Source: Escherichia phage NHEP3
Reading direction: 5' to 3' (one strand)
Sequence record: PQ511147.1
DNA: 44,039 nucleotides
A program made the translations under genes and the position numbers. The notes beneath the pieces are model-generated. The model did no database searches, had not been told where the DNA came from, and was given only the letters and a program-made list of their open reading frames with translations. The first letter of the stretch is position 1, and each line of letters opens with the position of its first letter. Of this stretch, positions 12,822-12,938 are shown piece by piece.

Positions 12822-12938
12822 ATGAATCCTGCATTACTGGCGGCTATTTTAGCCGCAAATACTAAACGTCAACCAGAACCTGAACCAGAGCCAGAACCGG
12901 AGCCACCGGTACAGGAGGATGATAATGGCGGGCTTTAA
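12822..12938 (+). CDS. micro-protein with a (Pro-Glu)5 repeat (38 aa)
   Basis: GGGGG Shine-Dalgarno and ATG at 12822; encodes MNPALLAAILAANTKRQPEPEPEPEPEPPVQEDDNGGL; overlaps the next gene start. Confidence 0.3.
   Translation: MNPALLAAILAANTKRQPEPEPEPEPEPPVQEDDNGGL

Follow-up and report, generated by a model that had tools for sequence, protein, structure and literature searches.

The closest described counterpart of the small gene considered here is orf12 of phage SSL-2009a (AV954_gp12, YP_008550149.1). The 38-aa peptide encoded at our locus is 100% identical to it and 92% identical to HK578_010 (the query of the protein homologue search was the 38-aa peptide plus two extra upstream residues). 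It also matches the 38-position profile of the family phrog_11158 over residues 1-38 of 38 (E 6.1e-26, 91.5 bits). The sequence, the full-length HMM match and the position between the adaptor gene Ad1 and the head closure gene Hc1 are all shared with phrog_11158 and orf12, and we see no difference between them. The gene is thus already known: it is present in RefSeq and in PHROGs as a hypothetical protein, and phrog_11158 is listed there with function unknown. Taken alone, the finding of this micro-ORF is ordinary, because a small hypothetical gene of this kind has already been catalogued. What is new for phrog_11158 is the analysis of selection and the link to alleles that carry an immunoglobulin-like (Ig) domain, and these elements jointly make its function testable.

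Decoration proteins of phages are a more distant comparison. Ig-like domains decorate the virion surfaces of phages, as in T4 Hoc, whose capsid-binding domain comprises ~95 aa (PMC10385173). The resemblance of our gene to such proteins (T4 Hoc, Dec of T5-like phages, the C-terminal Ig domain of the HK97 major tail protein) consists in an Ig_3 domain in alleles of 122 aa and 147 aa, and in an acidic, modular build that, like the one reported for Hoc (PMC10385173), combines an anchor with a part for display. The differences are equally clear. The allele in the window is without an Ig domain, the gene belongs to the neck module, and its virion location is putative. In place of a globular capsid-binding domain like that of T4 Hoc, there is just a predicted helix (residues 3-13) before the spacer.

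Coupled overlapping genes of phage late operons offer another comparison. With them our locus shares the TGA-N-ATG junction on its upstream side and the 14-nt overlap on its downstream side, both conserved in relatives; here, however, the intervening micro-ORF has a protein sequence of its own that is under selection. Finally, the EP/KP region of TonB and the EP repeats of trypanosome procyclin (PF05887) share with our peptide the (PE)n composition only. By analogy, a (PE)n stretch would be an extended, polyproline-II-like, negatively charged rod. The Pfam profile PF05887 (Trypan_PARP) gives 17.1 bits against a gathering cutoff of 100, which is a compositional match only, and we reject any evolutionary or functional kinship.

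Position and signals of the micro-ORF

The window is the whole stretch of DNA that we analysed, 44,039 nucleotides of Escherichia phage NHEP3 (PQ511147.1). It belongs to Dhillonvirus, siphophages of E. coli, and its best match is SSL-2009a at ~91% identity; the interval 12200-13400 is matched by 154 phage records at 80-95% identity. The micro-ORF occupies a slot between the Ad1 adaptor and the Hc1 stopper, and the features of this region are as follows.

12280..12299, + strand: terminator-like hairpin with T-run (8-bp stem with 7 GC pairs, then TTTTTT)
12320..12820, + strand: Ad1 head-tail adaptor, 166 aa from ATG 12320 (PF20557 DnaT_2, E 1.2e-14)
12813..12821, + strand: Shine-Dalgarno sequence of the micro-ORF, GGGGGTGAT, within the last Ad1 codons and stop
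12822..12938, + strand: micro-ORF, 38 codons plus TAA (ATG 12822-12824, TAA 12936-12938)
12822..12866, + strand: proposed anchor helix, codons 1-15 (MNPALLAAILAANTK), hydrophobic and conserved
12867..12908, + strand: Pro-Glu spacer, codons 16-29 (RQ-(PE)5-PP), length differing among relatives
12909..12938, + strand: acidic tail, codons 30-38 (VQEDDNGGL), and stop, as read from the sequence
12925..13278, + strand: Hc1 head closure protein (stopper), 117 aa (phrog_161, E 4e-28)

Ad1 matches phrog_477 ('head-tail adaptor Ad1') with an E value of 2.6e-37, and Hc1 matches chain A of PDB 10lj ('Stopper protein gp12') with an E value of 2.1e-68. The hairpin stands directly 3' of the stop of the major capsid gene (12261) and may be an attenuator of transcription into the neck genes. 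Because it falls within the longest ORF available to Ad1 (from 12278), the Ad1 start is more likely the ATG at 12320; the 501-nt form is the annotation in most relatives. In the record of phage BMA1 (L038, PQ178821.1, ~200-420) a 1-nt indel or an ambiguous base close to where Ad1 begins has shortened the annotated Ad1 to 309 nt.

The product of the micro-ORF, MNPALLAAILAANTKRQPEPEPEPEPEPPVQEDDNGGL, has 38 aa and a mass of 4.0 kDa, with 8 acidic and 2 basic residues and a pI of 4.05; its tryptic peptides are MNPALLAAILAANTK and QPEPEPEPEPEPPVQEDDNGGL. The (PE)5 stretch corresponds to codons 18-27 (12873-12902), and Tandem Repeats Finder reports a 6/12-nt repeat at 12871-12905. The first-pass annotation had described an ORF of 38 aa with a Shine-Dalgarno sequence, (PE)5, an acidic tail and an overlap with the next gene, and it was correct in all of these points.

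The Shine-Dalgarno sequence of the micro-ORF would form a duplex of -15.2 kcal/mol with the 16S 3' end, the strongest among the 8 module starts scored. Relatives have a G-rich, Shine-Dalgarno-like sequence at the same site before the ATG (GGGGGTGAT, GGGGGTAAT, AGGGGTTAA, AGAGGTTAA/GAGGTTGA). A single base separates the TGA of Ad1 (12818-12820) from the ATG of the micro-ORF. At the other end the micro-ORF terminates 11 nt past the Hc1 ATG at 12925 and shares 14 nt with Hc1; were ATG 12919 the Hc1 start, the overlap would be 20 nt. The Shine-Dalgarno sequence of Hc1, AGGAGGA (12912-12918; duplex -13.8 kcal/mol), lies inside codons 31-33 of the micro-ORF, and the C-terminal GGL and stop are a consequence of the Hc1 codons M-A-G-F-N.

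The ORF lister also reports a TTG-initiated ORF of 117 aa in the same frame (window 12585-12938). This longer ORF exists only because the frame of the micro-ORF stays open across the 3' part of Ad1. Its upstream frame contains stops in loci L018 and L011/L015, and ATG 12822 is kept in 37/37 loci.

Family, annotation and distribution

The gene is annotated as hypothetical in SSL-2009a, HK578, Gluttony, bov22_1, bov25_1D, UAE_MI-01 and others, and annotation is absent from records that include BMA1, JL1 and PEC9. Among the relatives, the PE array ranges from roughly 3 to 20 units, and all indels are in frame and within the array; the longer arrays of bov25_1D and bov22_1 are made of an 18-nt unit. 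The lineage of LM40P1 and L018 carries a divergent 39-aa version in the slot (MNPAIIVAMLAALATKEDEPEVEQ...), with an Hc1 that is 74% identical. Further away, Edwardsiella phage eiAU has an ORF of 51 aa (MISIPVTAALIAVQ...ENDDGFELP; KF772233.1, L020, 1068-1223) next to an Hc1 that is 45% identical. Its architecture is a hydrophobic start, a middle rich in P, E, Q and A, and an acidic end overlapping Hc1. The eiAU ORF fills a 135-nt 'gap' between Ad1 and Hc1 and is unannotated in KF772233; the protein is present in UniRef as eiAUOrf28 and eiDWFOrf29. In the more distant phages ChibiTotoro, KW1E_UTAR, Sabo, Elanor and Rtp, Ad1 and Hc1 abut with no ORF between them. Given this distribution, the slot is a specific feature of the Dhillonvirus/Eiauvirus clade.

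When 1.84 billion representatives were searched with a profile, the matches were the family, the metagenomic protein P0034 (discussed below) and the PE/DP-repeat proteins P0032 and P0033, the last two of which we dismiss as compositional matches. The micro-ORF is also carried by MG065648.1, 'Campylobacter phage A144' (labelled Campylobacter jejuni), which has ~90% identity to this Dhillonvirus module; probably its host label or the sample is wrong. The Bil-system paper contains nothing on the micro-ORF. The micro-ORF is also distinct from the gene of Ksap1, the small protein of Dhillonvirus that KpAvs2 senses; that gene encodes 74 aa and lies elsewhere in the genome.

Evidence for a real coding gene

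By simple arithmetic, the chance of an open frame of 38 codons is (61/64)^38, or ~0.16. Because such a frame alone is unremarkable, the case for coding rests on comparative evidence. One could indeed suppose that the ORF arose by chance, or that the sequence is a non-coding spacer or an RNA element between Ad1 and Hc1, and the fact that the micro-ORF is unannotated in BMA1, JL1, PEC9 and eiAU (KF772233) would agree with that. Conservation speaks against it. In Dhillonvirus loci drawn from GenBank phages, IMG/VR, ENA and Logan metagenomes, an ATG-initiated ORF with a conserved ATG is present in 37/37, despite the indels in the repeat. It is separate and intact in 36 of them and fused to Hc1 in one (phage Ioannina, see below). 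The intact ORFs are mostly of 38 aa (25 loci) or 39 aa (7 loci), the remainder being single cases of 46, 56, 122 and 147 aa. Conservation of the frame in relatives was one of the checks that the first-pass annotation had itself proposed, and the frame has been kept.

The pattern of substitutions points the same way. For codons 2-15 of the micro-ORF, pN/pS is 0.13-0.28 in the true frame, compared with 2.7-3.3 for the same nucleotides read in the other two frames; the flanking genes give 0.12-0.14 (Ad1) and 0.28 (Hc1). For the PE segment, when comparison is made within length classes, the value is 0.22-0.31. Purifying selection at the protein level acts on the N-terminal helix as well as on the PE segment. 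On the RNA side, Rfam gave no match for the micro-ORF region at E<=1, and the RNA fold is no more stable than that of shuffled sequences (z-score +0.62). Conservation, codon-position substitutions that fit the frame of the micro-ORF, and the Rfam and folding results together refute a chance ORF or RNA element for practical purposes, and the probability that we would still leave to it is negligible. Judged by this comparison of sequences, the micro-ORF is a genuine small gene of the Dhillonvirus head-tail joining module.

The first-pass annotation left the choice between a real small linker or assembly peptide and a remnant of translational coupling. The kept frame, the purifying selection on the helix and the PE segment, and the in-frame Ig domain in two relatives favour a real peptide; we see no support for a coupling remnant as the complete explanation.

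Proposed translational coupling

Ribosomes that end Ad1 at the TGA (12818-12820) would meet a strong Shine-Dalgarno sequence and an ATG one base further on, and those that translate the micro-ORF would terminate 11 nt beyond the Hc1 start. From this stop/start geometry we infer that Ad1, the micro-ORF and Hc1 are translationally coupled. Nevertheless, the micro-ORF is more than a coupling device, because its own amino-acid sequence is under selection.

A different regulatory role may be imagined, in which the micro-ORF is a proline-rich leader that tunes the translation of Hc1. Translation would be delayed at the PE/PP tract (EPPV), and a ribosome held up there would occlude the ribosome-binding site of Hc1, which lies 5-15 nt further downstream; the output of Hc1 would then be set by the length of the repeat and by EF-P status. 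The PP at codons 28-29, just upstream of the Hc1 Shine-Dalgarno sequence, and the variable length of the PE tract would suit such a leader. However, PP is missing from the alleles VQPAQ, VPQAQ and APEGEE and from the L018 type, and neither the selection on the N-terminal helix nor the Ig alleles would be explained. Nor is (PE)n known as a strong stalling motif. In our opinion, a leader function is thus very unlikely.

Alleles that carry an Ig-like domain

In phage SM_A2 (PP920552.1) the slot holds an ORF of 147 aa (L003, 923-1366). Its product begins with the same 15 residues, continues with a short linker rich in Pro and an Ig-like domain, and then has (PE)20. The domain matches Ig_3 (E 1.9e-6) and phrog_2973, 'Hoc-like head decoration' (E 8.5e-12), and it has ~40% identity to the Ig module of the HK97 major tail protein and to Dec of T5-like phages. 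The second allele, P0034, is the metagenomic protein of 122 aa found by the profile search mentioned above. It matches Ig_3 with 33.2 bits (cutoff 30) and phrog_2973 with E 5.4e-20. On its Logan contig it occupies precisely the Ad1-Hc1 slot, with a single base separating its start from the Ad1 stop and a 14-nt overlap with Hc1; its sequence ends in ...EPEPEEDENGGL. AlphaFold2 applied to P0034 from a single sequence gave a mean pLDDT of 47.9; because this model is too poor for a fold search, the Ig assignment of P0034 rests on the HMM hits.

The two Ig alleles share 68% identity, and at the DNA level the Ad1 genes next to them share only 76-79%. With such divergence, the Ig alleles represent a maintained class and not an assembly artefact. 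They are rare. A tblastn search of the phage collection with the SM_A2 protein returned only SM_A2 and unrelated Ig modules, the IMG/VR scan revealed no further Ig alleles, and a word-index search with P0034 found only P0034 itself. The 38-aa protein of the window has no Ig match in Pfam or PHROGs; the domain is confined to the rare alleles of 122 aa and 147 aa.

Two peculiarities of the SM_A2 record (L003, 923-1479) should be mentioned. A minus-strand ORF (LWLWLW...) is annotated over the PE array, and the plus-strand 147-aa Ig protein was missed. The record further contains a tandem duplication of the PE array, the Shine-Dalgarno sequence and the first 27 nt of Hc1, through which Hc1 gains an alternative ORF extended by (SQ)n at its N-terminus; this duplication may be a repeat-driven assembly artefact.

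The virion-anchor hypothesis

AlphaFold2, supplied with an alignment of 23 sequences, predicts a helix at residues 3-13 and an extended remainder, with a mean pLDDT of 87 over the first ten residues. M1, P3, A4, A7, A8, A11, A12, N13 and K15 are invariant in the 23 cluster representatives. The bulky residues L5, L6, I9 and L10 are on one face of the modelled helix, with alanines elsewhere, and this one-sided bulky face suggests a packing helix. Inspection for a signal peptide, lipoprotein signal or transmembrane segment showed that the peptide lacks Cys and has no basic residues at its N-terminus, and that its hydrophobic run spans only ~10 residues (A4-A12). A transmembrane span would need ~18-20 hydrophobic residues, and we reject a signal peptide or membrane anchor on these grounds.

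We propose that the Ala/Leu/Ile helix of ~13 residues docks the product on the virion, where the adaptor/stopper region is the likeliest site and the capsid a possible one. The remainder would reach out into the solvent and serve as an acidic tail or a display arm. The acidic Pro-Glu spacer would be extended, its length altered by repeat slippage; the sequence of the short acidic end follows for the most part from the Hc1 ribosome-binding site and start codons that overlap it. The allele of the window would then be a minimal, domain-less form, an anchor plus an acidic tail of ~23 residues; at ~3.1 Å per residue, such a tail would measure roughly 7 nm if fully extended. Virion association, anchoring by the helix and exposure of the tail are each putative. 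The helix is taken as a virion tether because the same helix precedes an Ig-like (Hoc-like) domain in two divergent relatives. Ig-like domains are reportedly restricted to virion proteins. We would put the chances that the virion-anchor model (a helix that tethers the product to the particle, with the tail exposed) is right at about even.

Certain facts do not sit well with the model. The Ig domain is placed between the helix and the PE array, which is not a simple anchor-stalk-head design, and only two Ig alleles were found. In addition, an anchor of 13 residues would be far shorter than that of any characterised decoration protein we know of. LC-MS/MS of virions of the Dhillonvirus EE09 identified 24 proteins, from which the homologue EE09_26 is absent, and Ad1 was detected there by one peptide (PMC10673088, Table 1). 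Because Ad1 itself gave only a single peptide, the non-detection of EE09_26 is a weak negative. Similarly, none of the Dhillonvirus virion chains in the PDB (9zys, 10ec, 11cq, 10lj) matches the micro-ORF peptide (gp11). Chains near-identical to products of the window are the portal gp03 (10ec, 11cq; window 6393-7913), the major capsid protein gp09 (9zys; 11161-12261) and, in 10lj, the stopper gp12 (12925-13278) and the terminator gp14 (13873-14295). This coverage is incomplete, since chains for Ad1 (gp10) and Ne1 (gp13) are likewise missing.

These observations would also agree with a peptide that is absent from the finished particle, namely an assembly factor or coupling peptide. It might be a transient chaperone of Ad1 or Hc1 or a timer of head closure, or its translation might set the ratio of Ad1 to Hc1. 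The stop, single nucleotide and start followed by a 14-nt overlap are a classic coupling geometry, the peptide was not detected in EE09 virions or among PDB chains, and more distant relatives, in which Ad1 and Hc1 abut, do without it. On the contrary, pure coupling needs no conserved protein sequence, yet pN/pS is 0.13-0.28, and Ig domains that resemble Hoc-like decoration proteins and major tail modules are hard to explain in a cytoplasmic chaperone. We therefore consider a role outside the virion to be possible, but on balance unlikely. Beyond it and the virion-anchor model, the remaining probability belongs to minor alternatives.

The virion-anchor model can be taken a step further. It is tempting to speculate that the slot between Ad1 and Hc1 is a plug-in display site, in which a 13-residue helix tethers interchangeable cargo to the head-tail connector; we judge this doubtful and offer it as speculation. 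The cargo may be the acidic PE tail alone, a version of it that repeat slippage has made longer, or an adhesion domain of the Ig-like type, and no virion anchor shorter than this helix would be known. A more exotic variant of the idea is that a +1 shift at CUU-UAA/UGA would join the arm covalently to a fraction of the stopper subunits.

Implications of the hypothesis

The evidence favours annotation of the micro-ORF, which is missing from several GenBank records and in that of SM_A2 has been replaced by an ORF on the wrong strand. With the Ig-bearing alleles, a gene of 'function unknown' acquires a hypothesis that can be tested, that of a minimal helix anchor with an exposed virion arm. Should the virion-anchor model be true, the helix would be a compact tag for the display of cargo on the neck of T1-like coliphages, and the PE array would illustrate length tuning by slippage within a structural module of a phage.

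Possible frameshifting and the Ioannina fusion

It remains to consider whether the micro-ORF is part of a frameshift product, either as a +1 extension of Ad1 at GGG-TGA or as an N-terminal extension of Hc1, the latter through a +1 shift at the prfB-like CTT-TAA-C (12933-12939). Programmed frameshifts are said to attach Ig-like domains to phage structural proteins often. A shift site of the CUU-stop type is indeed present (CTT TAA C at 12933-12939), CUU-UAA-C resembles the shifty stop of prfB, the Ig allele P0034 ends with CTT-TGA, and phage Ioannina has an annotated in-frame fusion of the micro-ORF with Hc1.

For an extension of Ad1, however, the offset between stop and ATG is not constant: most phages have 1 nt, L018/LM40P1 and eiAU have 2 nt. 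The sense codon before the Ad1 stop varies as well among GGG, GGT and GGC (GGT/GGC in SM_A2 and P0034), and an independent ATG with a Shine-Dalgarno sequence is always kept. For an extension of Hc1, the shift site is not conserved (SM_A2 ends with GAG-TAA and eiAU with CCG-TAA), and no Shine-Dalgarno-like element is found at the prfB spacing of ~3 nt: GGCGGG abuts the CTT, and AGGAGGA is 14 nt upstream. The CTT-TAA-C itself is fixed because the Hc1 codons G-F-N (GGC-TTT-AAC) force these bases. With offsets and shift sites that are not conserved, we reject both the extension of Ad1 and the fusion to Hc1, and consider frameshifting highly improbable.

The case of Ioannina deserves a separate comment. 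The record (L041, OQ589852.1) has at 796-1257 a 'head tail attachment' CDS of 153 aa, in which the first 24 residues of the micro-ORF are in frame with Hc1. The fusion is caused by two 1-nt insertions relative to the near-identical Dhillonvirus LM40P1 (L042), which turn the acidic tail into AGTTRRRRKR. Both insertions resemble sequencing errors and probably are such errors, which counts against the fusion as support for frameshifting. If it is real, the stopper tolerates an N-terminal extension of this kind.
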